DNA of 57,386 bases from Euryarchaeota archaeon UBA124 (GCA_002502215.1 DAPT01000073.1:9555-66940); one strand, 5' to 3'; shown: positions 12,133 to 53,887, numbered from the stretch's first letter. Numbers and translations: made by a program. The notes: generated by a model from the letters alone, not told the origin.

Positions 12133-13272
12133 ATGGCACAAATGTGGATTACAATGGGCCCTCAGCACCCGATGACACACGGCCTCTGGACACTTCGAGT
12201 AAAGGTTGATGGAGAAACCGTTGTCGATACAGAAGCTGAACTTGGTTACATTCATCGCGGTGTAGAAAAGATTGCAGAAGCGAGAGATTTCACTCAAGTG
12301 ACACCGTATTGTGACCGTCTCTGTTACGTAAGCGCCATGACATGGGCCAACTCCTACATCTACGCAGCAGAAGACTTGCTTGAAGTGGAAGTTCCGGAAC
12401 GTGCTGAATACATTCGACTTATTGCTGCTGAACTGCAACGACTCGCATCGCACTTGATGTGGCTTGGAGCCTTTGGCCCCGACATAGGAAACCTGACGTT
12501 GATGACATGGTGCATGAGGGACCGTGAGATGTTCCTCGATCTTCTGCAAGAGCTTGGAGGGTCACGAATGCACTACAACTATCCGCGAATTGGTGGTGTA
12601 AAACGCGACATTCCAGTAGGGTTTGCCGACCGTGCCCGAGCAAAAATCAAGTTGTTTGAGAACCGAATCAATGAATACGAAATGATGCTCGACGAATCGA
12701 CCATCTGGCTCGTGCGCCTTCAGGGCGTTGGCTATTCTCGAGCAGAAGACATGGTCAACTCAGGGGTGTCTGGACCGAATGTTCGTGCTGCTGGAGTCAA
12801 CTACGACGTACGTTGGGCACACCCATACTCTGTCTACGATCAGGTCGACTGGGAGCCGGCGGTTGAGAAACCAACATCGGTCAAAGGTGCTGATTGCTAT
12901 GATCGCTACCGTGTTCGAATGGAAGAAATGCGCCAATCATGCAAAATGACGCTTGACGCTCTTGATAAGATTCCTGGCGGAGCCAACACTCACTACAACA
13001 CGGGCGATGAGATGATCATCACCAAGGCCCCCACTCGTGCGCCTGAGGGTGCAACGGGATTCAGCAATTACGAATGCACACGCGGCGCTTCACAATTCTA
13101 CATTCAAGGCGGCGGTGATGGACGAGGAAAGAACCCATACCGACTCTCAATCCGATCACCAATGTTCATCACCATTCCTTACGTTGCAAAGACCATGATT
13201 GGTTACAAGGTTGCAGATATCCCTGCAATCATGGGCAGCTTTGACCCCTGCATTGGAGAGACAGATCGTTGA
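12133..13272 (+). CDS. nuoD: NADH-quinone oxidoreductase subunit D (49 kDa)
   Basis: Motifs MGPQHPMTHGLWTLRVKVDGE, GYIHRGVEKIAE and the C-terminal MGSFDPCIGETDR. GAGGTGAG lies upstream of the ATG. Confidence 0.95.
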   Translation: MAQMWITMGPQHPMTHGLWTLRVKVDGETVVDTEAELGYIHRGVEKIAEARDFTQVTPYCDRLCYVSAMTWANSYIYAAEDLLEVEVPERAEYIRLIAAELQRLASHLMWLGAFGPDIGNLTLMTWCMRDREMFLDLLQELGGSRMHYNYPRIGGVKRDIPVGFADRARAKIKLFENRINEYEMMLDESTIWLVRLQGVGYSRAEDMVNSGVSGPNVRAAGVNYDVRWAHPYSVYDQVDWEPAVEKPTSVKGADCYDRYRVRMEEMRQSCKMTLDALDKIPGGANTHYNTGDEMIITKAPTRAPEGATGFSNYECTRGASQFYIQGGGDGRGKNPYRLSIRSPMFITIPYVAKTMIGYKVADIPAIMGSFDPCIGETDR

Positions 13273-35404: not shown

Positions 35405-37507
35405 ATGAACGGTTTGCTTGTCGTTCAATCCATGAAGGCAGTTGAGAACGTTGCAATCATCGGTGCAGGAAACATGGGTTCAGGTATTGCACAAAAAAGT
35501 GCACAAGAAGGATTCAATGTGCAAATGGTTGACAGAGAAGCACAATACGTTGCTCGTGGTCGTTCAATTATCGAGAACTTCCTGCAAGAAGCAATCGAAC
35601 GACGTATTTTCTCACAAGATGAAGTGAACGCAACACTTGGTCGAATTACGGATGTTGTAGGTACTGAGAATACTGCGTCAAACACCGATTTGGTTATCGA
35701 GGCGGTGTTCGAAGATTTTGACATCAAAACAGCTGTGTTCTCCGCTTTGGATGATGCTTGTGATGAAGGAACAATCCTTGCATCGAACACCTCTTCGCTT
35801 TCTGTCAATGCCCTTGCAGAGGCAACCGGTCGTCCTGATCGTTTCGTGGGATTGCATTTCTTCTACCACCCTGCCAAAAACCGATTAATCGAGGTCATTC
35901 CTGCGAAGACAACATCGAAAGAAACACTTGAGCGAACAGTTCAGTATTGCAGAACGCTTGGAAAGGTTGTCATTGTTTGCAAGGACCGACCAGGATTTGT
36001 TGTCAACCGATTCTTTGTCCCATGGCTAAATGAAGCCTGTTTACTGCTCGAGGAAGGCGTAGCAACTGCTGCGCAGATTGATGCGATAGCGTGCAAAGCA
36101 TTCCGACTCGGACTCGGTCCGTTTGGACTCATGAATCTCACAGGTCCTCCGATTGCATTGCACTCAACGGATTACCTTGCAGAACAATTGAACACCCCCC
36201 GCTACAACGGCGCCCAAAACCTCAGAGATCTTGTTGCCAACAATGCCATGTGGCCAATTGGAGATGATTCAGAGTATTCCAAGGAACAATACACGGCCGT
36301 ATCTGAACGCCTTCTCGGTGTTGTTTTCGGCGTCGCTGCGCAAATTGCAGAAGAAGAAATATGCTCGATGGAAGACGTCGACCGAGGGGCAAAGGTTGGT
36401 CTTCGATGGGCGCGTGGACCGTTCGAAATGATGAACCGTATCGGTGTTTCAGAAGCCTACAGAATGGCGGCTGCCTACCAAGTGCTTGCAGGTAATTCAT
36501 GGGTACTTCCCTCGTTCTTCAAAGAGCAATCCGATTCTTCAACAAATTGGGATTTTTCGTATGTTGACTCCTCAACAGAAGATGGAATGACAACTATCAC
36601 CATCAATCGCCCAGAAGCTATGAATGCATTAAACGAAGTTGTCATCCAACAACTCACCGCCGCAGTGGAGGCCGCAAACGGCGATAATGCAATTTCAACC
36701 ATCGTCCTTGATGGTGCCGGAAAAGCCTTCGTTGCTGGAGCAGACGTCAAATTCTTTGTCGACAAGATTCGTTCCGACGATATCCCCGACATTGAGACAT
36801 TTACCGAAAATGGGCACACGTTACTTGCTGCGCTTGAAAATTCCATGAAGACTACGATTGCATTGACAACAGGCCTTGCTCTTGGTGGAGGACTGGAACT
36901 CGCATTGGCTTGTGACTACCGAATCGGGACTCGACGCACCCAATTCAGGTTTCCTGAAACGAGTATTGGAATCTATCCTGCTCTTGGTGGGACGCAACGT
37001 CCTGCTCGAATCGCAGGTCGAGAGCTCGGCCGATGGGCCGTTCTTGCTGGGAACTTCATGAACGCTGAAACGGCCACAGATCTTGGGTTGGTTACTCACC
37101 TTGTCGACATTAACGATGTTCCAAATTGCATCAAAGACATCCACACATCAGGCAAACCGGAGGACAAGTATCCAGGTAAACCAATCAATGAGAACAGCCC
37201 TGTCGTTAAGTTCGCTAAGAAATTCTTCTCGGATGGAAACATGGCTGCTTTGCTCGCAGGGAGTTGCCCAGATGGCTTTGATGCTGAGGACAAAATCGTT
37301 GCTCGCCAACTCAAGTCGCTCAAGTTCACGGCTCCAATTGGATTAGCCATGGCCAGTGAACGAATCGATGCTACAGAATCGATGTCACTCGATGAAGGTC
37401 TCCAACTTGAGTTACAAGGCTTGGATCGAATCTTCTCAACCGAAGATGCACTTGAAGGACTCAGCGCACTAATTGAAGGCCGAAGAGCGACCTACAAGAA
37501 TGCCTAA
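35405..37507 (+). CDS. Fused 3-hydroxyacyl-CoA dehydrogenase (N-terminal) / enoyl-CoA hydratase (C-terminal), beta-oxidation
   Basis: Rossmann motif VAIIGAGNMGSGIAQ plus HAD core SNTSSLSV and GRPDRFVGLHFFYHPA. Crotonase motifs ITINRPEAMNALN, GAGKAFVAGADVKFF and LGGGLELALACDYRI. The start could instead be ATG 35432. Confidence 0.9.
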   Translation: MNGLLVVQSMKAVENVAIIGAGNMGSGIAQKSAQEGFNVQMVDREAQYVARGRSIIENFLQEAIERRIFSQDEVNATLGRITDVVGTENTASNTDLVIEAVFEDFDIKTAVFSALDDACDEGTILASNTSSLSVNALAEATGRPDRFVGLHFFYHPAKNRLIEVIPAKTTSKETLERTVQYCRTLGKVVIVCKDRPGFVVNRFFVPWLNEACLLLEEGVATAAQIDAIACKAFRLGLGPFGLMNLTGPPIALHSTDYLAEQLNTPRYNGAQNLRDLVANNAMWPIGDDSEYSKEQYTAVSERLLGVVFGVAAQIAEEEICSMEDVDRGAKVGLRWARGPFEMMNRIGVSEAYRMAAAYQVLAGNSWVLPSFFKEQSDSSTNWDFSYVDSSTEDGMTTITINRPEAMNALNEVVIQQLTAAVEAANGDNAISTIVLDGAGKAFVAGADVKFFVDKIRSDDIPDIETFTENGHTLLAALENSMKTTIALTTGLALGGGLELALACDYRIGTRRTQFRFPETSIGIYPALGGTQRPARIAGRELGRWAVLAGNFMNAETATDLGLVTHLVDINDVPNCIKDIHTSGKPEDKYPGKPINENSPVVKFAKKFFSDGNMAALLAGSCPDGFDAEDKIVARQLKSLKFTAPIGLAMASERIDATESMSLDEGLQLELQGLDRIFSTEDALEGLSALIEGRRATYKNA

Positions 37508-41029: not shown

Positions 41030-42004
41030 ATGGCTAAGTGGGCTCCGCATTTGATTGGGTTGCTCACACCCCTGTCCGCTGTCGTTTCCTTGCTCGTCGG
41101 CGGCTGGTGGATGCTTACCCCAATCGTCCTCTTGCTCGGTTTGTACCCATTCCTCGATTCGTTCGTTGGTTCCTCGACAATTCATGATGTTGAGGAAGAA
41201 GGCAAGGGACATGACATCATCGTTCACGCCCATGGGCTTCTTGTCCCCGTCGTCGTTCTTTGTCTTCTTTACCGTGTTTGGACGGGTGTTGGTTCAATAC
41301 CGCTTCTTGTTCCAATAATTTCAGCTGGCCTTGCTACTGGAGCCGCAGGCGTTGTTGCAGCGCATGAACTTGGTCACCGACGTCCAAGATCGTTCAGCTG
41401 GTGGCTCGGGCGTCTCGATTTACTTTCTGTAATGTACCTTCATTTTACTGTCGAACACAACCACACACATCACAAGCATTGGGCTCGTAAAGTTGATCCA
41501 ACAAGCTCGCCTTGGGGTCGAAGTGTCTATGGGCACTTGATTCGAACCGTACCCCGTCAACTTCGAAATGCGTACAAAATACGTCCAAAGGACACAAGGA
41601 TTTCTCTGTTGGTTGAAGCAACTCTTCTCATCGGGCTTGCCATTTGTGGACTACCGTATTTTGCTGCATTTGTTGGTCAAGCCTTGATAGCGATTTATCT
41701 TCTTGAATTTGTAAACTTCATTCAACATCACGGACTCGAGCGCGGCGAAGATGAGCGTCCGCATGCAGGACACGCATGGGAAAGCCGTACTCGATGGTCT
41801 CGATACACGCTGATGAATCTCCCATTGCATGCAGCCCATCATCTTCGATCAAGCACGCCATACGAGCGACTGCGACCGTACGATGAATCACCTCAGTTAC
41901 CAGGCGGTTACTACCAAATGTTCTGGATTGCACTCATTCCGCCGCTGTTCAATCGGTTGATGCAGAAGTCTGTAGATTATTCTGGCGGCGTAGGTGGAGC
42001 ATAG
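41030..42004 (+). CDS. AlkB-like integral-membrane di-iron hydroxylase / fatty-acid desaturase family protein
   Basis: His boxes in AlkB order: HELGHR, EHNHTHHKH, NFIQHHGLER and LHAAHH. Multiple TM helices lie in the N-terminal half. Confidence 0.8.
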   Translation: MAKWAPHLIGLLTPLSAVVSLLVGGWWMLTPIVLLLGLYPFLDSFVGSSTIHDVEEEGKGHDIIVHAHGLLVPVVVLCLLYRVWTGVGSIPLLVPIISAGLATGAAGVVAAHELGHRRPRSFSWWLGRLDLLSVMYLHFTVEHNHTHHKHWARKVDPTSSPWGRSVYGHLIRTVPRQLRNAYKIRPKDTRISLLVEATLLIGLAICGLPYFAAFVGQALIAIYLLEFVNFIQHHGLERGEDERPHAGHAWESRTRWSRYTLMNLPLHAAHHLRSSTPYERLRPYDESPQLPGGYYQMFWIALIPPLFNRLMQKSVDYSGGVGGA

Positions 42005-43041: not shown

Positions 43042-43165
43042 GCGATTTCCTGATGCTTCCCTTTTTTCAAAGCGTCGCAATAAAATGTAGAGTCTATCGA
43101 TACAAACCATTGTAAAGAAATAACCTCGGGCTCTAATCGTATGCTGAATAATCGGAGTTTTTCCA

Positions 43166-43873
43166 ATGCTTGAAGTCAACGGTCTGACCAAGAGTTTCGG
43201 TTCACTCAACGTCTTGAAAGGCGTCAACATGCAAGTTGAGAAAGGGGAAATGGTTGCGCTCATGGGGCCTTCTGGTTCTGGAAAGTCAACGCTTCTCAAC
43301 ATCATTGGGGGTCTCCTCGCAGGCGATACTGGTGAAATAAATCTCGACGACCGAATTTACGGAACTCGTGGTCCAGCAACTGTCGTCGACGTTCGGCGAA
43401 CCAAAATCGGATGGATTTTCCAAGACTTTCACTTGCTTGACAATCTCTCTGCACTTGACAACGTTGCGATTGCGCTCGAGTTATCCGGTGTTTCTTCAGA
43501 AGAAGCAGTAACTGCAGCAGAGGTCGCATTGCAGAAGGTGGGTCTTGGTGACCGCCTCAATTTCATTCCTGACCAACTCTCAGGCGGGCAACAACAACGG
43601 GTGGCGATTGCACGAGCAATAGCAGGCAATCGTCCTGTCTTACTCGCGGATGAACCGACCGGAAACCTTGACATTTCAAGTGGGAAAGAGGTAATGAAAC
43701 TGTTCAAAGAATTGTGTCATGACGAGAAAAATCCAATTTCTATCCTTATGGTAACGCATGACCCAGATTTGGCATCGACTGCAGATCGTATGCTCTTGCT
43801 CAACGATGGGAAAACCGAAGCTTCCGACATTCGCTCGGCTTGGGGACTTGACAGCGAGGGTGAAGAAGAATGA
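43166..43873 (+). CDS. ABC transporter ATP-binding protein (MacB/LolD/FtsE-like)
   Basis: Walker [11 protein letters not shown]-loop, signature [14 protein letters not shown], Walker [13 protein letters not shown] and H-loop MVTHD. Confidence 0.95.
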
Positions 43874-46800
43874 GCGATAATCCTCCAGAATTGAAAGAAA
43901 ACGACTTTGCCAAAGGGCGCTCTCGGCTTCGTCGATATCAACATACATTGGTCGAATTACCGAGTCGTTTACGCCTTGCCGCACAGAGCGCCTGGCGAGG
44001 CAAAGAACGAGGAATGGCTGTCATTGCAGGTGTCTTTCTCGCATCCTTGGTTATCACGACTGTTCTTGCTTATGGCGTTGGACTCTCCCAATTGTTCTTT
44101 GAAGAATCTCTTGATTCTGAACCGTTCGATGCAAAAATAGAGTTTGCCCGCACACCGGTTGAGAACGCTTCAGGTTGGTCAAACAACACGACGACGATGA
44201 CGGAGGTTTGCGATGAATTGATGAATGAATTTTCCGAATTCAATGATTGTACGCTCGTTCTCGGTCGTCAGGGAATCCACAGTGGAGGCTTCTTCAACAT
44301 CGATTTCGTTGTCGCCCAACCACTTGAAATGCGATCAATATCGGACAATGAAAACCCATTGTGGGACCCAATGGACTTTGATTACCCTGAAACGCTCGAT
44401 GCGGGCCCTCCTATTTCTGACAAACGTGCAATCCGATTCCTTGGACCTGAAGCCTTCGATGGTGAATTGGCCGATAGGCTCGGTGAGAACATTATTGCAG
44501 GGCTTGGAGAATGGCCTACACCCGAAAACATGAGTTTGAACCGTGGAATTATTCTCCCCTCTACGATTGCAAGCGAAGCTCAAGCAAAGGTAGGAGACGT
44601 ACTTGAGGAACTAACCTTTGCGTACGTTGTCGATGAATCCACACTGTTTGAAGCGAGCGTAACAGAGGAAAACTGTGCTGGCGAAATCACGCCAGAAAAC
44701 AACGAAATGATGTATTGTCGAATGTCGATGACGGTTGAGAATCTCACCGTTTTGGGAATCTATGAGCCTTGGGATTTTGGCAATCCAACACTTCCATTCA
44801 ATCCAATTTTTACCACATGGGAAACCCTTGAAGAATCACAGCGTGAGACGTTGATTAACTACGATCACATGTACCTCGGCGTCACAATCGATCGTGGACA
44901 ACTACCCACGACCTCAACAGCAGATGCTGCTGAATGGCTTGAAAATCTTGGGACTGAAGTGCAAGATGGCAACTACACGGATGAAGGCGTTGAGCTGTAC
45001 TACACCGACATCGTTTCTGGAACAATTACCTTCCTCAACATCTTCCTTGGTTTAATTCAAATCTTTGACTACATCATTATGATTCCAATCGTGTTCTTGT
45101 CGATTGCTGTGTTGATTTACGGACTGGTTTTATCGCTTGAACAACGACGCAGAGAGGTGAGCATTCATCGCGTCATTGGGGCGGATGGACAGAGTCTGCA
45201 AGGCATGGTCCTGCTCGAATTGTTTGTCATGTCATCCGTCGCCTGGCTCATTGGATATCTCTTGGCTCTCATGGCGGTACCAATCGTTCTCTCAGCAGTA
45301 GGATTCATGGAATTCAGAACAGGTGATTTCGATGTGAATCCCACACTTGGTTTTGGTTCAACACTGTTCACAGCAATTACGACATTAGGGCTCGCAATGA
45401 TCTTTGGACGCAGTAGAGCACGCGATTTCCTTGAACTTGAAATCGAGGAGGGGGTTCGCAAAACCACGGTCAAAGCAGAACCAAAACGATGGCTCCATTG
45501 GACGGCGTTCCTGTTTGGTATGCTCGCTGTGATTGATACATGGCTTGAGATGAACGGTAGCGAAGATGGAATCGTTTCCAACTTCTTCATCGAGGGATTG
45601 ATTGGTATCATCGGTCCGTTTGCTCTTTGGATTGGGGGAGCATTGCTTCTTGGAAGAATCGGTGCAAAAGGTCCGCAAATCATGCAACTCATCTTTGGAC
45701 GATCACCTATCCTCAAGGACGTGAAGAGAGGACTCAAAGGGTCTGGGTCTGCAGAGTCGGTGAACCGGCTTGCTGTCATTATGTTGCTTACACTCTCCAT
45801 CGTTACACTTGCAGCAGTGCAAGGTTATACCGGGACGCTTGTTGATGAAAAGACCGCTGATGCGACCGTTGGTTCAGATTTACAAATTTCTACGGAACAA
45901 GACATCAATTCGACCGCCCTTCTTTCGCTCGTGAATGAATTTGCCGACGCAGATGTCACCTCTGTTGCAACGAGTGTGCCTGAAATTACACTTGCTGACG
46001 AGCAGGGAGGCGATAGTTTGCAAACGTTCGTACTGTTTGACGGGAATGAAGACGTCTTACGTTGGAGTGAACAATCAATACCAGGAACGAGCATCAGCTC
46101 TGCGATGGATGGATATTCAAACAATGGTTTCACTGCTGGGCAAGATTCTGCATATTCGCTCGACTTGCCGGGTTCTGACCGCGGTGGCGAGGAGAATCGA
46201 CTCGACGATGTTTTGCTCCAACCCGGTGATGAGAAGTCTCGTGAAATTACATTCGTATGGGAAAAGATCGAATTTAACTTCACTTCAGGTGGTTCTGAAG
46301 AATCAGACCCACTGATGCTGTTTGAAGCTTACACCCTGCTTATGGATGCAGATTGGAGTGGACTCAACCTCTCCAATCAAGACTTGAATGAGAGGGATTT
46401 AGGACGTGTTGATTTGTCGAACACCAACCTTGCGGGAGCAGACCTCTCAAACCTCAACATGAGCGAATCCGTCCTTCTCGACGTGAACCTGAGCGATGCG
46501 GATTTGACCGGTGCAAACCTCGAGAACGCAATTCTTGTCAATTTCATGGGCGGTTCATTCCAGGATGCCGACTTTACGAATGCAAACCTCGCCGGAGCAT
46601 TTGGTTTGTTTGATCTATCATCCTCCATCCTGTCCAATACAACATGTCCTGATGGAACCAACAGCGATGACACCGCTTGTGCGAGTGGTGCAAGCCAACT
46701 ACCTCCACCATTAGCAGAAGATCTCTTCTTTGCAGATACCCGTGTTCAGGTTATTGTTACGCCTTACACGAACACGATGTACTACATGGGAACACACGAA

Positions 46801-47490
46801 TACATTCCAGGAGTTGGTGCAGCAACAATTGGATCTGCACTGGTCATCGGCGAAGATTCATGGCGTAATCTCGTAGGAGATTCTGCAGCTGATGAGTTTC
46901 GCTCAAAGACTTGGATTGTGCGCGTAGACGGACTTTCAGGCGATGAATTAGAATCGCTTGCTTCACAAATCAAAGCAGATTCGCGTGTATCTGGAGTACT
47001 TGATTGGTCGAGTACACACAAGGACGTTGAGCGAAACGGTGGTTTAATTTTCGGAACACCCGGTCTGCTCTCACTGCAGTTTGTTGTTGCAAGTGTTGCA
47101 GCAGTCGCCTCAAGTTTCGTTTTCCTTTCCCTCGTTCTCAGTCAACGTCAAAAAGAACTGGCAGTCCTGCAAGCGATTGGTGCTTCTCCAAACCAAATTA
47201 TCCGATTGGTCCTGTTCGAGATTCTTTCGATTGTTGTTGTTTCCATGGCACTCGGTATCGTTCTTGGTGTCGGACTCGCATTGTCCTTTAACGGATTCTT
47301 TGACATCTTCGGATTCATCTTCCAAATCTTTGGAGGATCATCGACGACCATACAACGGACGCTTGTCTATCCTTGGTCACAGATTATTTTCGTGTCTTTG
47401 GCAGTCTTTGCCGCAGTTGTTGTAGCATTGCTTGTGACAACACGACGAGCGTTAACAGCGGATTTGGCCAGTGTGCTGAAGGGGGAGTGA
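43870..47490 (+). CDS. Giant (1,206 aa) double FtsX/MacB-type ABC permease with large extracytoplasmic regions and an internal pentapeptide-repeat segment
   Basis: ATGA overlap with the ATPase gene. There are two FtsX-type modules: LSLEQRRREVSIHRVIGADGQSLQGMVLLELFVMSSVAWLIGYLLAL and LVLSQRQKELAVLQAIGASPNQIIRLVLFEILSIVVVSMALGIVLGVGLAL. Pentapeptide repeats lie at about 46354-46640. Confidence 0.9.
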   Translation: MSDNPPELKENDFAKGRSRLRRYQHTLVELPSRLRLAAQSAWRGKERGMAVIAGVFLASLVITTVLAYGVGLSQLFFEESLDSEPFDAKIEFARTPVENASGWSNNTTTMTEVCDELMNEFSEFNDCTLVLGRQGIHSGGFFNIDFVVAQPLEMRSISDNENPLWDPMDFDYPETLDAGPPISDKRAIRFLGPEAFDGELADRLGENIIAGLGEWPTPENMSLNRGIILPSTIASEAQAKVGDVLEELTFAYVVDESTLFEASVTEENCAGEITPENNEMMYCRMSMTVENLTVLGIYEPWDFGNPTLPFNPIFTTWETLEESQRETLINYDHMYLGVTIDRGQLPTTSTADAAEWLENLGTEVQDGNYTDEGVELYYTDIVSGTITFLNIFLGLIQIFDYIIMIPIVFLSIAVLIYGLVLSLEQRRREVSIHRVIGADGQSLQGMVLLELFVMSSVAWLIGYLLALMAVPIVLSAVGFMEFRTGDFDVNPTLGFGSTLFTAITTLGLAMIFGRSRARDFLELEIEEGVRKTTVKAEPKRWLHWTAFLFGMLAVIDTWLEMNGSEDGIVSNFFIEGLIGIIGPFALWIGGALLLGRIGAKGPQIMQLIFGRSPILKDVKRGLKGSGSAESVNRLAVIMLLTLSIVTLAAVQGYTGTLVDEKTADATVGSDLQISTEQDINSTALLSLVNEFADADVTSVATSVPEITLADEQGGDSLQTFVLFDGNEDVLRWSEQSIPGTSISSAMDGYSNNGFTAGQDSAYSLDLPGSDRGGEENRLDDVLLQPGDEKSREITFVWEKIEFNFTSGGSEESDPLMLFEAYTLLMDADWSGLNLSNQDLNERDLGRVDLSNTNLAGADLSNLNMSESVLLDVNLSDADLTGANLENAILVNFMGGSFQDADFTNANLAGAFGLFDLSSSILSNTTCPDGTNSDDTACASGASQLPPPLAEDLFFADTRVQVIVTPYTNTMYYMGTHEYIPGVGAATIGSALVIGEDSWRNLVGDSAADEFRSKTWIVRVDGLSGDELESLASQIKADSRVSGVLDWSSTHKDVERNGGLIFGTPGLLSLQFVVASVAAVASSFVFLSLVLSQRQKELAVLQAIGASPNQIIRLVLFEILSIVVVSMALGIVLGVGLALSFNGFFDIFGFIFQIFGGSSTTIQRTLVYPWSQIIFVSLAVFAAVVVALLVTTRRALTADLASVLKGE

Positions 47491-47492
47491 AG

Positions 47493-48473
47493 ATGAGCGA
47501 AACCATTCTGGAATCTGAGGGGTTGTATCATGTGTATGAATCGAAGGCTGAGGACGGAAACGTTGTCGCGCTCAGAGGTTTGCATATCAACATGAAAGCC
47601 GGTGAAGCAATCGCCGTTGTTGGTCCATCTGGATCAGGTAAATCGACGCTCATGAAGTGTCTCGGAGGGCTCATGAAACCAAGTGCGGGGTCTGTTAGTC
47701 TCGCTGGCAAAAACATGACCCGTTTGAAAGGACAGGAATTGGTAGAACTTCGACAGAAGACCGTTTCTTTCATCTTCCAGGAAGGAAACCTCCTTCCTGA
47801 TTTGAATGCTCGAGACAATGTTGCACAACCACTCCGACATCAAGGTGTTTCTTCCAAGAAAGCACTCGCCAAAGCCGATGCAATGCTTGAGCGACTGGGT
47901 ATGGGTCATCGAATTCGAGCACTTCCATCGATGCTGAGCGGTGGAGAACAACAACGCGTAGCGATTGCTCGTGCGCTCATCACCCGCCCACGATTGATTC
48001 TTGCAGATGAGCCAACAGGGGCTTTGGATCCTGTGACAAGCCGTGAAGTCCTTGCACTGTTCAAAGACCTGCATGAGAACGACGGTGTGTCTTTCTTGAT
48101 TGTCACACACTCAAAGGAAGTTGCTTCCTTTGCCAATCGATCCCTCGAGTTGAGGGACGGTCGTTTTGTTGCAGAGCATGGAGAATCCATCGATGTTGAA
48201 GATCTGAGCAAGGATCGAGAACTCATCATCGATGAAACTGGAACAGTAACGTTTCCTCCCGATCTCTTGGTTAGGCTTGGTGGAGCAGGGCGATACACTG
48301 TCGGGAACGTTGCCAGCGGATACTTGTCCCTTCAAGGCGACGCAGTTGAGTCCATGGGCAAGATGGAACTCGCTTCGGTATGTCCCGCCTGCAAGTACGA
48401 TTACGGTGACAGCGACGACCAAGAATGCCCCTCGTGCGGTTCAAGTAGACCGATGGTTGAGGTTAATTTGTGA
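47493..48473 (+). CDS. Second ABC ATP-binding protein with ~100-aa C-terminal extension ending in a zinc ribbon
   Basis: ATG 47493 lies 2 nt after the permease stop and is preceded by GGGGGAG. Motifs [35 protein letters not shown] and VTHS. The extension ends in CPACKYDYGDSDDQECPSCG. Confidence 0.9.
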   Translation: MSETILESEGLYHVYESKAEDGNVVALRGLHINMKAGEAIAVVGPSGSGKSTLMKCLGGLMKPSAGSVSLAGKNMTRLKGQELVELRQKTVSFIFQEGNLLPDLNARDNVAQPLRHQGVSSKKALAKADAMLERLGMGHRIRALPSMLSGGEQQRVAIARALITRPRLILADEPTGALDPVTSREVLALFKDLHENDGVSFLIVTHSKEVASFANRSLELRDGRFVAEHGESIDVEDLSKDRELIIDETGTVTFPPDLLVRLGGAGRYTVGNVASGYLSLQGDAVESMGKMELASVCPACKYDYGDSDDQECPSCGSSRPMVEVNL

Positions 48474-48766
48474 AGCGTTGGGTGACCTTGGTTGGGTATC
48501 TGGAGGGCTTCTCCTTCCTCATCTTGATGTTCTATGCGATGCCATTGAAGTACATCGCAGGAGAGCCCGAAATGGTCTCACTGTTTGGCTCCATCCACGG
48601 CGGTCTGTTCGTTGCTTACATCGGCCTTTTGCTGGCGGGCGTGGGCAAGCACTGGACGAGGACGGCGCTGATTCACGGCTTCATCGCTGCCGTCGTCCCG
48701 GCCGGGCCGTTTTTGTTCGAGGGCATGCTCTCGAGTGACGAGTATGATTTAAGAAACAACGAGTAG
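48470..48766 (+). CDS. DUF3817-like small integral membrane protein
   Basis: The GTG start overlaps the ATPase stop (GTGA). Sequence GYLEGFSFLILMFYAMPLKYIAGEPEMVSLFGSIHGGLFVAYI resembles the DUF3817/YdzA family, recalled from memory. Three TM helices. Confidence 0.7.
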   Translation: MKRWVTLVGYLEGFSFLILMFYAMPLKYIAGEPEMVSLFGSIHGGLFVAYIGLLLAGVGKHWTRTALIHGFIAAVVPAGPFLFEGMLSSDEYDLRNNE

Positions 48767-48829
48767 AATTGTATTGTTGTAGTATAAGATTATATCCTTG
48801 AACGATGGTGGCAATCTAAGTGATACATC

Positions 48830-49270
48830 ATGGATGCAAAGACAATATTAAACCCTAAAGGCTGGCTTATTGGCGTTGGAATCGTCAACATTTTGTTCAG
48901 CATAATAAATTTCCTGATGGCAGGCGATACCGCCACCACAGCACTTGAAGCGGAATACGGCGCACTATCTGACCGGGAATTGTCCATAGCGACGGGCTAT
49001 GAAGAAGGCTGGGGCCTCTTTGGCATTCCTTACGGCATCCTAGCCATCGCTTCTGGCCTTCTCCTCTCTGGCTCCGATCGAGCAAAGATGGCCCTGACCG
49101 CTGGTTTGGCATTCATCGTGACTTTCCTCGCGTTGGTGACCATTTCGAACGGCAACGGCTACGAAGTTCCTATTCCGCAGGCCGCACCGCTCTTCGTGCT
49201 GTTGTTGGCGCTCACAGCCTCGGGTTACCTCCACATGAACGATGACGAAGCACCTGCTACGGAGGCCTGA
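48830..49270 (+). CDS. Small 4-TM membrane protein, paralog 1 of a tandem family (146 aa)
   Basis: The N-terminal motif ILNPKGWL and the C-terminal YLHMNDDEAPATEA* are shared with the next ORFs. Confidence 0.65.
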   Translation: MDAKTILNPKGWLIGVGIVNILFSIINFLMAGDTATTALEAEYGALSDRELSIATGYEEGWGLFGIPYGILAIASGLLLSGSDRAKMALTAGLAFIVTFLALVTISNGNGYEVPIPQAAPLFVLLLALTASGYLHMNDDEAPATEA

Positions 49271-49272
49271 AG

Positions 49273-49665
49273 ATGGACCAACTCAAGAAAATCTGCAATG
49301 TGAAGATCTGGCTGATTATTCTCGCCATCATCCACACCGTGGTCGGCGTGCTTGCGCCACTTGACCCTCATTCTGACACACAGCTGGAGATAACCGGAGT
49401 ATTCTTGGCCATCTCTGTTTACCTTCTTTACACCGCCTTTGGTACCTCGGGCCAGGAGCAGGCCAGATGGGCTACCGTGTTGTGCGGGCCAATCTGGGTT
49501 TGGTTCGTAGTTTGTGGTGCTCTTGAACTGGAGGGCGTTGGCAACAACAGTTGGTCACTGTCCACTGAGTTGATTCCTCCCCTCGTTGTTTGGGGTATGA
49601 CGGCGCTCAGCGGTATCCTTCATTGGAACATGGACGAAGAAGCCGCACCTGCTGCTGAGGCTTGA
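49273..49665 (+). CDS. Small 4-TM membrane protein, paralog 2 (130 aa)
   Basis: MDQLKKICNVKIWL..., CGPIWVWFVV, LIPPLVVWGMTALSGILHWN and tail EEAAPAAEA*. The ATG lies 2 nt after the paralog 1 stop. Confidence 0.7.
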   Translation: MDQLKKICNVKIWLIILAIIHTVVGVLAPLDPHSDTQLEITGVFLAISVYLLYTAFGTSGQEQARWATVLCGPIWVWFVVCGALELEGVGNNSWSLSTELIPPLVVWGMTALSGILHWNMDEEAAPAAEA

Positions 49666-49667
49666 AC

Positions 49668-50048
49668 ATGGATCAATTGAAGAAAATCCTCAACCCCAAA
49701 ATTTGGCTTCTCGTTGTGGCTGGCGGACATACGTTAGCGACCATTCTACCCGTGCTGAGCGATCAAGGGCTCAACTTGGATGAAACAGAAGTCGAATACG
49801 CTGTTTGGCGTGTTGTATCAATGATCATTCCGATGGTGTTTATTGCGCTTACGTTCACGAAGGAGATTCAAGCAAAACTGGCAACGGCGATTGCTGGACC
49901 TGTTTGGGTCATGTTCGTGGTTTGGACCGTCATGGACGGATTTCAAACATTGTTCATTCCACCGTTGGTTCTGTGGGGTCTTCTCGCATTGAGTGGCGTG
50001 CTGCATGGTAACTGGCAGACGAATGAAGCCGCACCTGCGGAGGCTTGA
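49668..50048 (+). CDS. Small 4-TM membrane protein, paralog 3 (126 aa)
   Basis: MDQLKKILNPKIWL..., AGPVWVMFVV, FIPPLVLWGLLALSGVLHGN and tail NEAAPAEA*. The ATG lies 2 nt after the paralog 2 stop. The listed TTG 49662 is less likely. Confidence 0.7.
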   Translation: MDQLKKILNPKIWLLVVAGGHTLATILPVLSDQGLNLDETEVEYAVWRVVSMIIPMVFIALTFTKEIQAKLATAIAGPVWVMFVVWTVMDGFQTLFIPPLVLWGLLALSGVLHGNWQTNEAAPAEA

Positions 50049-50050
50049 CC

Positions 50051-50409
50051 ATGGACTTTCTCCGGGACATGCGCACGGCCGCCATCGCAAACGGCATCAT
50101 CGTCGCCTTTCATGTGTACGTCGCCTTGGCTTTGGAGGGCCTGTGGTTCCTCGTTCCGGTCGCCATCATTGGCGCGCTCGTCTTCGGGGCATATTCGACC
50201 AGAGGGCGATTGGGAGCAGGCCTCCTGGCCGTTCCTCAGGCCGCTACCTCCTGTTGGTGCCAGAGTTGATCGCCGCCCTCTCGAGTGAAAACACACCCGG
50301 GACCATGGAGTACCTTCTGATCCCATTTTGGTTCCTGACCATGATCGTGAACTTCTTTGTCATCCACGCAGAGTGGACCAGTGCACCACACCCGTCTTCA
50401 GAGGCGTGA
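50051..50409 (+). pseudogene. Paralog 4 of the tandem family, apparently frameshifted
   Basis: The N-terminal half (MDFLRDMRTAAIANGIIVAFHVYVALALEGLWFLVPVAIIGALVFGAY...) is in the frame of ATG 50051 and stops at 50269. The family-like C-terminal half (YLLLVPELIAALSS...EYLLIPFWFLTMIVNFFVIHAEWTSAPHPSSEA*) is in the -1 frame and ends at 50409. Confidence 0.45.
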
Positions 50410-50452
50410 TGGATGAACCGCACGGTGTTGGCGGTGGCGTTTCGCGTCTGTG

Positions 50453-51310: not shown

Positions 51311-53887
51311 ATGAGTCGAAGGGGATTCATCGTTTCCTTGATTCTCATTCTGCTGATTTCAACATGGACGCCAATGGCGGATGAAGTGCTTAACGACCTT
51401 CCAGTCCTTCAGCAATCTGTATCCGACGACGTTAATGGTGCAGAAGATTACACGATTGTCTATCAATTGGATATTCCCGATGATGCGGAGTACAACAATC
51501 AACCAATTCCATACTCAGTTGACTCCAGTTCAAGCATTGATTTCGACTTCGATCGTGTTGCGTATTACCTTGAGCTCGAAAAACCAAATGAGGACCGAAC
51601 ATGGGTCTTTGTCTCGTTTCCTAGTCTTACGACGCATGCCGATAAATTAGGGGTGCCGACCTTCAACTCTGGAACTGTGTACAATCAACTTTTGACAGAC
51701 GTCGAGGTCCAATCGAATCACGAGAATCTATCCTCACTCGGAGTTATTGATACGGGTGTAATCGAATTTTGGGGGACAAATTACGGAACTTCAAACTCCT
51801 TGGGCGTTCCAAATGGAGACGATTCAACTTATGATTTCGCAGATGCACAGTGGAGTTCTGATTCCGCAGGCTATGGAAGTATGCAAATCCACGATTATGA
51901 GTCTGGTCAGACCCTGTTTGCATACAATGCTTGGGGCAGTTCAAATACAGACGAAGTTGGAATAGGGAGCAATCCTGACCTTGATGAGAACCCAGATTGG
52001 ACCTTTGCATCAAATGCAGCAGAATACAATCTCAAAAGTTTGACTGTTTTGGTCCGTTCTGGACCAACGCCATCTGAATTAATGATTACATTGCAATCAC
52101 CTGATAATCATCAAATTGTTCAACGCGATGAGGACAACAACGGTATTTTCTCAGTACGTGGGTCAACGGAGTATACAGCCGATTTGATTGAAGGTAGATA
52201 CATCGATCTTGAAACCGGACTTGAATCTGAATGGGAGTTTGTCGCTGTACCATTGAGTTCAAATTTCTACGGCACGATTGAGGTTCCAACCGGTTGGTAT
52301 CGTCTCGAACTTCGTTTCATGCAGAACAGTAACCCACTTGCGATAAAAACCATTGAACCTGTTGGTGTGGGAGAAGTATTCATCGTTGCAGGTCAATCAA
52401 ATTCTGCGAATTCGGGGGATGCTCCTCTAACGCCAACAGATTCACGAGTGAGCACTTGGGGTCCCAGCGGTTGGCGTTTCGGTTACGACCCACAACCTGC
52501 TGCAACAGGAACCGCTGGGTCTCCTTGGCCGGTTGCTGGAGATCTTCTTGCAAGTCGTTACGATGTACCGATTGGTTTCCTTTCAGTGGGCTACGGGGGT
52601 ACGCCAGTCGATCGATGGGTTCCAAGCCAAAATGACCTGTTTCCTCGAATCACTGACGCCCTCGATGCGGTCGAACCGAGCGGAGCAAGAGCCATTTTGT
52701 GGCATCAAGGAGAAAGCAATGCTGGAGGTACTGCTGCAGAAGATTATGCACGCATGCTTGGAGAGGTTGTGCTTGGAAGTCGAGAACATGCAGATTATGA
52801 GATACCTTGGATTGTGGCTCGTGTAAGTTTTGTTCCGAATGGAGATCCGGTTAAGATGGGATGGATAATTGAGGGTCAAAATGCGGTGATTGCAGATGAT
52901 CCCTTGACGTTTCCAGGCCCGCATACTGATGACCTAAACGGCACGCAATGGCGGTACGATACAATCCATTTCAACGAGGCGGGTTTGAGGGAACACGGTT
53001 CCCGTTGGGACGTTCGAATTTCATCCGCAATGGATGACCTATTTGACCCGATTTCCGATTCGGATTCAGATGGGGTAACCGATGATAAGGATGCATGTCC
53101 AGATACTCCAGATACAACGGAAGTTTACCTCGATGGCTGCAGTGAAGAACAACGTCACCCAGGTAGCACGACCGATGAAGACCAAGATGGAATCATGGAT
53201 GCCGACGACCTCTGTCAACAAACGCCAGTCGGAGAATCCGTCTACACCAACGGTTGCAGCGATAGCCAACTTGATTCCGATGGTGATGGTGTATCCGATG
53301 CCGACGACCTCTGCCCATTCTTTAACGACGCCATCGATCAGGATTTTGATGCAATACCAGATGGTTGCGATGACCTCATCGATCGAGACAATGATGGTGT
53401 TTCGGATACCGATGATCTCTGCAACAACTTTGATGATGCAATCGATGTTGACCTTGATGGGATCCCAGATGGTTGCGATGATTTGATCGATTCGGATGGG
53501 GATGATGTCCCAGACGATGCAGACCGTTGCAACAATTACAACGACTCCATTGATGTGGATTTCGATGGTGTACCAGATGGTTGCGATGAACTGATTGATT
53601 CAGATAATGATGGTACGGCGGATGAATTCGATCGCTGTCCTGAATCCGATGACTCCATTGACTTGGATGCAGATTCGATTCCTGACGGTTGCGATGATTC
53701 CATTGATCTTCGCTCAGAAGAAGAGTTAGAGTCAAATGCATTAGCAAATGAAGGTCTGAGGGCTGCTGCATTGATCTTCGTCCTTGTTTTGGTCGCATTC
53801 CTCCTCATTGCAATGATTCGGAGAGGTAAACCACCAACCGATCAGAAGTACAGTGACTTCTCGGAAAAAGAACACATCAAATTCTAA
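51311..53887 (+). CDS. Membrane-anchored surface protein: unknown N-domain + SASA/DUF303-type carbohydrate acetylesterase domain + thrombospondin-type-3-like Ca-binding Asp repeats
   Basis: Signal peptide MSRRGFIVSLILILLISTWTPMA. Esterase motifs VAGQSNSANSG (from 52391) and ILWHQGESNAG. Six DxDxDGxxDxxDxC units are present. TM helix AALIFVLVLVAFLLIAMI near the C-terminus. Confidence 0.8.
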   Translation: MSRRGFIVSLILILLISTWTPMADEVLNDLPVLQQSVSDDVNGAEDYTIVYQLDIPDDAEYNNQPIPYSVDSSSSIDFDFDRVAYYLELEKPNEDRTWVFVSFPSLTTHADKLGVPTFNSGTVYNQLLTDVEVQSNHENLSSLGVIDTGVIEFWGTNYGTSNSLGVPNGDDSTYDFADAQWSSDSAGYGSMQIHDYESGQTLFAYNAWGSSNTDEVGIGSNPDLDENPDWTFASNAAEYNLKSLTVLVRSGPTPSELMITLQSPDNHQIVQRDEDNNGIFSVRGSTEYTADLIEGRYIDLETGLESEWEFVAVPLSSNFYGTIEVPTGWYRLELRFMQNSNPLAIKTIEPVGVGEVFIVAGQSNSANSGDAPLTPTDSRVSTWGPSGWRFGYDPQPAATGTAGSPWPVAGDLLASRYDVPIGFLSVGYGGTPVDRWVPSQNDLFPRITDALDAVEPSGARAILWHQGESNAGGTAAEDYARMLGEVVLGSREHADYEIPWIVARVSFVPNGDPVKMGWIIEGQNAVIADDPLTFPGPHTDDLNGTQWRYDTIHFNEAGLREHGSRWDVRISSAMDDLFDPISDSDSDGVTDDKDACPDTPDTTEVYLDGCSEEQRHPGSTTDEDQDGIMDADDLCQQTPVGESVYTNGCSDSQLDSDGDGVSDADDLCPFFNDAIDQDFDAIPDGCDDLIDRDNDGVSDTDDLCNNFDDAIDVDLDGIPDGCDDLIDSDGDDVPDDADRCNNYNDSIDVDFDGVPDGCDELIDSDNDGTADEFDRCPESDDSIDLDADSIPDGCDDSIDLRSEEELESNALANEGLRAAALIFVLVLVAFLLIAMIRRGKPPTDQKYSDFSEKEHIKF
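53273..53704 (+). repeat. Four in-frame tandem repeats of 108 nt (36 aa) within the 858-aa gene
   Basis: The 15-mer CCAGATGGTTGCGAT recurs exactly at 53357, 53465 and 53573. The variant CCTGACGGTTGCGAT is at 53681. Unit consensus: D-x-D-x-D-[GD]-x-x-D-x-x-D-x-C-x3-[ND]-D-[AS]-I-D-x-D-x-D-x-[IV]-P-D-G-C-D-x-[LS]-I. Confidence 0.8.

Follow-up and report, generated by a model that had tools for sequence, protein, structure and literature searches.

A fused FtsX-type permease gene flanked by two paralogous ATPase genes in Marine Group II and Asgard archaea, with a variable array of small membrane-protein genes downstream

We analysed a stretch of DNA of 57,386 nucleotides (nt), hereafter the window, from Euryarchaeota archaeon UBA124 (GCA_002502215.1, DAPT01000073.1:9555-66940), a Marine Group II archaeon (Candidatus Poseidoniaceae). 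On the plus strand of the window, positions 43166-48766 hold a translationally coupled four-gene operon that encodes an ATP-binding cassette (ABC) ATPase (A), a large permease, a second ATPase (B) and a small membrane protein of the DUF3817 family. Genes for further small membrane proteins, with four predicted transmembrane (TM) segments each, follow as an array (Table 1). An original prediction for this DNA had seen here nine translationally coupled genes, ending in four small paralogs. Its open reading frames (ORFs) and junctions were recovered as described: an ATGA overlap at 43870-43873 joins A to the permease, a 2-nt gap (AG, 47491-47492) separates the permease from B, and a GTGA overlap at 48470-48473 joins B to DUF3817, while the AT-rich spacer of 63 nt (68% A+T) and the 2-nt gaps before positions 49273, 49668 and 50051 were confirmed as well. 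The count of nine did not hold, the cluster consisting of seven intact genes and a frameshifted stub of 72 amino acids (aa).

Table 1. Features of the transporter operon and the adjoining array, in window coordinates (HMM, hidden Markov model; NBD, nucleotide-binding domain; CTD, C-terminal domain).
Feature	Coordinates	Strand	Evidence
Divergent intergenic region between a GDP-mannose 4,6-dehydratase gene (minus strand, real start ~43044) and ATPase A	43045..43165		Sequence and Pfam match of the neighbour
ATPase A (235 aa), MacB/LolD/FtsE/YbbA-type nucleotide-binding subunit	43166..43873	+	Pfam ABC_tran E 8e-35, NCBIfam
Permease (1,206 aa), two FtsX modules joined by two linker helices	43870..47490	+	Pfam FtsX (twice) and Pentapeptide
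ATPase B (326 aa), MacB/LolD-type NBD and ~100-aa CTD (residues ~225-326)	47493..48473	+	Pfam ABC_tran, NCBIfam
DUF3817/TIGR03954 small membrane protein (98 aa, 3 hydrophobic segments, conserved HG motif), GTG start	48470..48766	+	Pfam E 1.4e-18, TIGR03954 E 1.7e-20
Spacer, 63 nt, 68% A+T, TATA-like element TATAAGATTATAT at 48783-48795, GTGAT 6-10 nt before ATG	48767..48829	+	Sequence
Small 4-TM protein, member 1 (146 aa)	48830..49270	+	Family HMM 147 bits
Small 4-TM protein, member 2 (130 aa)	49273..49665	+	Family HMM 164 bits
Small 4-TM protein, member 3 (126 aa)	49668..50048	+	Family HMM 107 bits
Direct repeats at array gene boundaries (GAAGCCGCACCTGC...GAGGCTTGA.CATGGA)	49233..50055	+	Repeat families D1-D3; spacing 395 and 383-386 nt
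Fourth small membrane-protein gene, frameshifted	50051..50409	+	ORF 50051-50269 (72 aa), remainder in other frame

Relatives of the permease were confirmed by tblastn at 148 places in species-representative genomes, and the locus counts given here refer to the best 80 of these 148. Their titles are nearly all those of Poseidoniales or Methanobacteriota archaeon metagenome-assembled genomes (MAGs), with two bacterial MAG titles among them. When all window proteins were compared by tblastn with these 80 Poseidoniales loci, the order A-permease-B-DUF3817 was found in essentially every locus that was sufficiently long. The close junctions were conserved as well. A and the permease overlap by 4 nt in 53 of 69 loci, the gap between the permease and B measures 2-3 nt in 70 of 71, and B overlaps DUF3817 by 4 nt in 52 of 66. 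ATPase A was detected in 69 related loci at 72-98% identity, and the length of ATPase B is 324-326 aa in 69 of 71. The central element of the original prediction, two ATPases around one 1,206-aa permease with two FtsX modules and pentapeptide repeats, thus agrees with Pfam and NCBIfam and is strongly conserved. The closest copy of the permease gene, 99% identical to that of the window, comes from MAG NAT68. This MAG contains two versions of the locus, L001 and L008 (contigs NZVG01000015 and NZVG01000046), whose permeases share 99% and 93% identity with that of the window; because two versions occur in one MAG, the bin mixes at least two strains.

The arrangement extends well beyond Poseidoniales. 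A search of 50%-identity representatives retrieved full-length relatives down to 26-32% identity. Eighty metagenome loci, counted without taxon assignment, encode more divergent permeases of ~1,020-1,050 aa; wherever the locus was long enough, an A-type ATPase gene lay upstream and a B-type gene with the same CTD downstream. These shorter-permease loci contain neither DUF3817 nor small-protein genes, and their operon stops at a convergent gene. The annotations of relatives at still greater distance name Heimdallarchaeota, Kariarchaeaceae, Promethearchaeota (including Promethearchaeum syntrophicum) and Thermoplasmatota. The order ATPase, permease, ATPase with CTD recurred in three of three such contexts, those of P. 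syntrophicum (CP042905), a Heimdallarchaeota MAG and a Thermoplasmatota MAG, where A has 222-260 aa (the Thermoplasmatota A excepted), the permease 962-1003 aa and B 324-351 aa. An HMM of the CTD matched the downstream ATPase of the Asgard and Thermoplasmatota loci with E values of 1e-11 to 1e-17. In the Thermoplasmatota MAG (L167, JASLWR010000005, 2912-6004) gene calling makes the A-type ATPase the C-terminal part of a 1,030-aa ORF, whose N-terminal 800 aa include a signal anchor and PKD/CARDB domains, an odd topology for a cytoplasmic ATPase; this ORF is either a mis-called start or an unusual fusion.

The best PDB and NCBIfam matches of both ATPases were to LolD, MacB, FtsE, DevA and YbbA and stayed under the equivalog thresholds; for A, this applied to every one of its best NCBIfam matches. 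All catalytic motifs of ATPase A are intact, and they are likewise intact in 136 of 136 A-type and nearly all of 139 B-type sequences scanned for motifs. A and B of the window are 40% identical to each other. Fixed differences set the two types apart, LSGGQ/TGNLD in A versus LSGGE/TGALD in B (LSGGE and DEPTGALD in window B). A neighbour-joining tree of the NBD cores split cleanly into A and B with 99% bootstrap support, and each clade holds Asgard and Thermoplasmatota members in mirrored order. The tree thus indicates that A and B are two old paralogous clades.

ATPase B is longer than A (326 versus 235 aa) by the extension that the original prediction had already noted, and this CTD is almost invariant across Poseidoniales loci. 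A beta-rich segment (DRELIIDETGTVTxPPDLLVRLGGAGRYTVGN..SGYLSLQG) leads into a C4 motif (CPACK..Y....Q.CPSCGSSRP) whose four cysteines, in two CxxC knuckles ~11 residues apart, are invariant from Poseidoniales to Asgard archaea. The Zn_ribbon_3 model matched 11 of 12 diverse CTDs (best E 2.5e-5), the window protein itself falling below Pfam gathering scores, and the rubrerythrin rubredoxin domain matched with E 0.003. The last ~30 residues are a predicted C4 zinc ribbon, in keeping with the earlier assignment: the CPxC...CPxCG pattern matches zinc-ribbon models, and the tail is conserved. For the middle segment, phmmer and hmmsearch against the PDB returned nothing significant. Its resemblance to an AbrB/SpoVT half-barrel is a lead only, with a weak hhalign match of the beta-rich segment (probability 25%, 37 columns in the expected register, approximate reference sequences) and a weak PF04014 match (E 0.079) in 2 of 12 members. 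MetN, ModC and MalK are other ABC ATPases with C-terminal regulatory domains. By analogy, the CTD of B, with its predicted zinc ribbon, could plausibly be a cytoplasmic regulatory or docking module.

Hydropathy predicts ten TM segments for the permease in a 4+2+4 arrangement (TM1 at residues 49-67, TM2-4 at ~395-511, TM5-6 at ~545-594, TM7 at 634-652 and TM8-10 at 1072-1190). Extracytoplasmic domain (ECD) 1, of ~310 aa (~68-380), follows TM1, and ECD2, of ~420 aa (~653-1070), follows TM7. Pfam locates the pentapeptide repeats at residues ~824-934, inside an ECD2 insertion (~797-956) that is missing from the ~960-1000-aa Asgard/Thermoplasmatota homologs and also from the ~1,020-1,050-aa metagenome permeases; it is present in at least one Marine Group IIb MAG (supplement of PMC9723583). 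Several loci with shorter, insertion-free permeases (L103, L110, L111, L113, L122 and L124) have a separate minus-strand pentapeptide-repeat gene 1.5-3 kb downstream of ATPase B, and its repeats are 30-38% identical to the insertion in the window permease. An AlphaFold 2 (AF2) model of the window permease, built on a 53-sequence alignment, reached moderate confidence, with a predicted local distance difference test score (pLDDT) of 64.5 and a predicted template-modelling score (pTM) of 0.53. With this model, Foldseek retrieved Escherichia coli YbbP at the top (9ge6/9ge7, E 1.7e-11), then BceB, LolE/LolC and MacB, with probability 1.00. The modelled ECDs resemble the periplasmic domain of LolE, and one segment resembles pentapeptide-repeat proteins.

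By their FtsX 4-TM modules, predicted ECDs and NBD subfamily, the permease and the two ATPases classify, as modelled, as a Type VII (MacB/FtsX-fold) ABC transporter. The explanation that we consider probable is that the locus combines a Type VII machine, driven by an A/B heterodimer, with a separate array next to it. One pseudo-dimeric ten-TM permease of the YbbP/BceB architecture would display the two large ECDs, each FtsX module having its own coupling helix, one after TM2 and the other after TM8. A would dock on one of these helices and B on the other, giving a heterodimeric engine as opposed to the homodimers of YbbA, BceA, LolD and FtsE. The long TM1/TM2 and TM7/TM8 stalk helices would pass ATP binding and hydrolysis on to the outer domains and so move them, a mechanotransmission suggested by the fold class.

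The engine might instead be a homodimer, with A2 or B2 powering the permease and the other ATPase serving as a spare, as a regulator or for a different membrane partner. The structurally characterised fused-permease Type VII systems, YbbA2-YbbP (PMC12646458) and BceA2-BceB, are indeed all homodimeric, and the motifs are complete in both window ATPases, so either could in principle homodimerise. Yet in every lineage, from Poseidoniales to Asgard archaea, the A and B genes lie on either side of the permease gene with coupled junctions, and their split is ancient with mirrored trees, as expected of obligate partners. A pseudo-symmetric permease, moreover, presents two non-identical docking sites. 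We therefore regard a homodimeric engine as quite unlikely and favour the heterodimer.

The 98-aa product of the fourth gene is a bona fide member of the DUF3817/TIGR03954 'integral membrane protein HG' family, with scores above the curated cut-offs of both PF12823 (67.8 bits, cut-off 27) and TIGR03954 (73.6 bits, cut-off 33.25). A role of DUF3817 as transporter subunit or modulator has been speculated on (PMC10105947); in the literature we found no report of DUF3817 coupled to an ABC ATPase gene. The coupling to B is confined to Poseidoniaceae-type loci, the gene being missing from the shorter-permease metagenome and Asgard loci, and DUF3817 diverges much faster than the ABC genes (37-93% identity versus 80-97% for B). 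Because it is so tightly coupled to B, the three-helix protein is probably an accessory membrane subunit in Poseidoniaceae-type loci. Between the window and its nearest relatives, L001 and L008, DNA identity falls from ~93-96% in the ABC genes to ~65% precisely at the DUF3817 start.

The original prediction of four small paralogs was borne out for three of them, whose mutual identity is 23-46%; the fourth gene is the stub, which has no match to the family HMM. The repeats at the gene boundaries take in the codons of the conserved C-terminal tail (EAAPAAEA) together with the stop codon, and continue across the 2-nt gap into the start codon of the next gene. In most array-bearing loci, ATTATAT/CTATAA at about -40 and GTGAT(A) at about -10 precede the first array gene, and from their sequence we infer a candidate array promoter and ribosome-binding site. 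Member 1 is 84-87% identical to copies in L022, L030 and L058, Poseidonia lineages with permeases ~80% identical, and members 2 and 3 are 88% and 95% identical to copies in L070, a lineage whose permease is 74% identical; judged by these identities, the window copies are a mosaic. A protein identical to member 3 occurs on 8 contigs.

The fourth gene measures 359 nt, which is not a multiple of 3. Its frame from the ATG at 50051 stops at 50267-50269, and a '...SSEA' tail lies in another frame. Intact alleles of 122 aa, ending in ...AEAAPAAEA, exist in L170 and L172; a 1-nt deletion near 50243/50244 is common to the window and to L168 and L169, which are metagenome assemblies. An assembly error was rejected as the cause, the same deletion being present in these two other assemblies, which may sample one population, and the frameshift is probably real in the window lineage. 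Membership of the fourth gene in the 4-TM family was not demonstrable, as the intact allele scored 5 bits, and any -1 frameshift repair of the window gene at most 10 bits, against the family HMM.

The small 4-TM family comprises 480 protein clusters with conserved K11, W13 and G114. Its named clusters are all 'hypothetical proteins' of Poseidoniales, Thermoplasmatota or Euryarchaeota with no Pfam domain, and the family is a Poseidoniales-restricted orphan family. Searches of the small proteins against Pfam, NCBIfam and PADLOC gave no match. An AF2 model of member 2 from a 50-sequence alignment shows a four-helix membrane bundle (pLDDT 87, pTM 0.80) that had no significant match among PDB folds (best E 1.8). 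Homology to DUF3817 was considered and rejected (hhalign probability 0.4%). Outside the operon, a three-gene array of the family lies between Rieske oxygenase and DEAD-box helicase genes, and single genes occupy five further contexts; no ABC transporter was found near these members. One MAG carries the ABC-linked array L058 and a further family member on a second contig (L178). In the Poseidoniales contigs L081-L083 (8001-9619) and L084 (8001-8426), family arrays or single genes adjoin a DEAD-box helicase gene, and the arrays of L081-L083 end in an unrelated 127-aa 4-TM protein, which echoes the divergent fourth gene of the window.

At the operon itself, the interval between DUF3817 and a convergent cupin gene proved highly variable among the 80 loci. 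It contains nothing in 18 of them and one to four genes of the small family in another 18; elsewhere it holds unrelated ORFs. Copy number of the array thus ranges from 0 to 4 among relatives, and the nearest relatives have none. Relative to L001 and L008, the window contains a clean 1.7-kb insertion (48751-50452), after which identity returns to 95% in the convergent cupin gene. The same spot also accommodates other inserts, namely an ORF of 209 aa that contains a CPGC motif, a cytoplasmic protein of 441/449 aa and a protein of 633 aa whose N-terminus is PIN-like (carriers L018/20/21/52/53/66, L007/L074 and a subset of L040-L079), and metagenome relatives have a subtilisin-like 655-aa ORF. None of these inserts is related to the transporter or to another insert. 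The interval behaves as a general insertion/replacement hot spot.

Traces of deletion were seen in two relatives. In L032 (JAURAI010000021, ~12750-12841), a mini-ORF, MDAKLHMNDDETAQESTEA, that joins the first and last codons of a family member lies upstream of the sole array gene and reads as the internal-deletion remnant of a former first array gene. In L039 (QQSD01000062), which has no array, the protein encoded by the DUF3817 gene that ends at ~14858 closes with ...YDTEEAPAAEA. Small 4-TM proteins typically carry this C-terminal tail, and the gene looks like the product of a deletion that joined DUF3817 to the final part of the last array gene. Together with the frameshifted fourth gene of the window, the L032 mini-ORF and the EEAPAAEA tail in L039 could be taken to mean that the array is decaying into pseudogenes or consists of spurious, functionless ORFs. 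This is the least credible of the alternatives we weighed: the family spans 480 clusters with conserved K11, W13 and G114, the AF2 model is confident, and intact copies remain 84-95% identical across lineages whose permeases are 74-80% identical.

As the array varies from 0 to 4 copies, recurs in unrelated contexts and has its own promoter-like motif, we consider the genes at 48830-50409 a recombination-prone cassette array distinct from the transporter, with the same probability as the explanation of which this is a part. It would have its own promoter and occupy the variable interval that separates the operon from the convergent cupin gene. The same facts speak against the original prediction in so far as it joined all nine genes into a unit and likened the small proteins to immunity proteins beside an exporter. 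As a unit, the genes would make a toxin or peptide exporter, in which DUF3817 and the small multi-TM paralogs provide immunity or accessory functions. They are co-oriented with minimal spacing, the array, if there, always comes right after DUF3817 in Poseidoniaceae-type loci, and DUF3817 and the array share the segment that diverges from the nearest relatives. However, 18 related loci, the closest relatives included, have the full operon and no array; the shorter-permease metagenome and Asgard versions lack both DUF3817 and the small family; and arrays or single genes of the family stand beside unrelated genes. No toxin or peptide precursor was found at the locus, no window protein matched ABC_membrane or Peptidase_C39 in Pfam, and PADLOC reported nothing past generic ATPase similarity, so the analogy with immunity proteins gained no positive support. 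Conservation of the gene set across related MAGs therefore holds for A-permease-B-DUF3817, whereas the small-protein array occurs independently. A single nine-gene unit is largely refuted by this distribution and, in our judgement, very unlikely.

The neighbours of the operon in the window include GDP-mannose dehydratase, a fatty-acid desaturase-like protein, cupins and, 2.5 kb off, a SASA-esterase protein. The region between the dehydratase gene and ATPase A is, from its divergent layout, the presumed promoter region of the operon. In the 858-aa SASA protein (51311-53887, plus strand), which is kept in the closest relatives only, a sialate O-acetylesterase-like (SASA) domain precedes numerous acidic DxDxDG repeats, similar to thrombospondin type 3, and a TM anchor at the C-terminus. 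A membrane fatty-acid desaturase/alkane hydroxylase-like protein (41030-42004, plus strand) is encoded upstream of the operon in most Poseidoniaceae-type loci, and a fused 3-hydroxyacyl-CoA dehydrogenase/enoyl-CoA hydratase (35405-37507, plus strand) farther upstream; outside the family, the synteny of these lipid-metabolism genes with the transporter is lost. A tRNA scan of the window found none. The cargo gene that the original prediction envisaged nearby did not emerge, for no cargo or partner gene is conserved beside the core, and neighbours vary between Poseidoniaceae-type, shorter-permease metagenome and Asgard loci. Among the compared lineages, no hydrolase, adaptor, two-component system or peptide precursor is conserved beside the core, and the window neighbourhood showed neither a histidine kinase or response regulator nor an HlyD/MFP-like gene.

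As to the task of the machine, we tentatively place first the removal, by extraction or expulsion, of hydrophobic or lipid-anchored molecules from the outer leaflet, by analogy with LolCDE and YbbAP; resistance to toxins or peptides and actuation of an extracellular partner appear less likely. BceB among the best fold matches and the public annotation of relatives as 'ABC-type antimicrobial peptide transport system' point instead to a BceAB-like module for sensing and detoxifying antimicrobial peptides, or to a MacB-like toxin efflux pump. The pentapeptide insertion, which is not in all relatives, agrees with such a role in that part of the outer domain differs between lineages. Nevertheless, the permease has two large ECDs like YbbP, against one in BceB, and no two-component system, adaptor or outer-membrane partner was found nearby. 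Coastal metatranscriptomes place an 'ftsX-like permease' among the highly transcribed genes of a Marine Group IIa MAG (PMC9723583); such genomes also have a second FtsX permease (MG2_0585 type), and the transcribed gene could be either of the two. High conservation and, with that proviso, possibly high expression (PMC9723583) fit a housekeeping role in the envelope better, and we hold a peptide-detoxifying or toxin-exporting module to be unlikely, though it is the strongest competitor to lipid or lipoprotein extraction.

Several points weigh against the combination of a heterodimeric machine and a separate array. The permease model is of moderate confidence only (pLDDT 64.5), the joint presence of A and B on the same permease molecule is something we infer, and no conserved partner or cargo gene was found beside the core among the compared lineages. 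The array is always co-oriented with the operon and begins only 63 nt after DUF3817. In the window, the identity break at the DUF3817 start suggests that DUF3817 and the array arrived together, and a functional link between DUF3817 and the small proteins may exist. Transcription of the operon could possibly read through into the array, and the putative array promoter is a sequence pattern only.

In conclusion, A-permease-B could represent an archaeal class of Type VII transporter that is old and has not been described before, spread over Thermoplasmatota (including Marine Group II) and Asgard archaea, with an obligate A/B heterodimer, a zinc-ribbon regulatory domain and thus an asymmetric engine and stator. 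Such a class could be an archaeal counterpart of Lol or YbbAP that acts on lipid-anchored surface proteins or membrane lipids; we rate this wider proposal as possible, at somewhat under even confidence. Within an archaeal group that ranks among the most abundant in the surface ocean, the operon is near-universal, and its presence also in Asgard archaea, one of them cultured, makes it experimentally accessible. Its function bears on envelope maintenance, remodelling or defence in archaea with a single membrane and an S-layer. The array, in turn, is a compact example of a recombination hot spot with a lineage-specific family of membrane proteins. Hot spots of this kind often mark strain-level interactions with viruses or competitors.

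Among known systems, E. coli YbbAP(-TesA) (9ge6/9ge7) is the best structural match. Like the window permease, YbbP is a single fused ten-TM protein with two Porter/Sabre-type ECDs and two coupling helices, served by separate MacB-type NBDs; its 4+2+4 architecture places the ECDs after TM1 and TM7, and two copies of one ATPase are bound (PMC12646458). In contrast, the window system has two ATPase genes that are ancient paralogs, B encoding a zinc-ribbon CTD in addition, and sits in an archaeal single-membrane envelope. Identity to YbbP in the structural alignment is ~10%, and the window permease exceeds YbbP by 400 aa and contains a pentapeptide beta-helix insertion. Sequence membership was not reached for either subunit (NF041854 YbbP, 17.6 bits versus 999; NF007879 YbbA, 182-185 bits versus 336). 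YbbAP works with the TesA-like lipid hydrolase, whereas none is adjacent to the window operon, a distant gene being possible.

BceAB(-S), the bacitracin system of Firmicutes (7tcg, 8g3a), likewise joins a ten-TM fused FtsX permease to separate NBDs, and a small or sensor membrane protein, BceS, can associate with it, which sets a precedent for an accessory subunit such as DUF3817. It differs in the single large ECD of BceB (TM7-TM8), the BceA homodimer and the linked BceRS-like two-component system, none of which occurs in the window system. LolCDE is also an asymmetric Type VII machine, and the similarity extends to the ECD fold of LolE/LolC and to the ATPases, which score best against LolD models. 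There, however, the asymmetry resides in the permeases LolC and LolE on a LolD homodimer, whereas in the window system the permease halves are fused and the ATPases are asymmetric too; scores remained far from equivalog membership (LolCE, 29 bits versus 362; LolD, 188-214 bits versus 308). To our knowledge, archaea have no LolA/LolB pathway.

MacB and FtsEX share the FtsX-domain 4-TM module, the MacB-type NBD and the mechanotransmission fold class. Both are homodimers of 4-TM units; MacB has its NBD fused to the permease and needs MacA, encoded by an adaptor gene, and TolC, and FtsEX acts on activators of peptidoglycan hydrolases, whereas the window NBDs are separate genes and none of these partners occurs here. 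The ADOP duplicated permeases (TIGR03434), which also contain a duplicated FtsX unit, gave the best NCBIfam match to the permease, but its 41.6 bits against a 622-bit cut-off place it outside that family. PCAT-type bacteriocin and peptide exporters are recognised by a 6-TM ABC_membrane domain, a C39 peptidase and adjacent precursor or immunity genes, features that the window system does not have. We found no paper on a fused FtsX permease with two different ATPases, and a 2018 review of the MacB family, which covers homodimeric, heterodimeric (LolCE) and fused permeases, does not include that combination (PMC5985334). The original prediction had held that the cluster matches no known system. 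That view stands for the subunit composition, which is unlike those of MacB, Lol, FtsEX, Bce, YbbAP and the bacteriocin-ABC systems, but not for the permease, whose architecture is the known one of YbbP and BceB.

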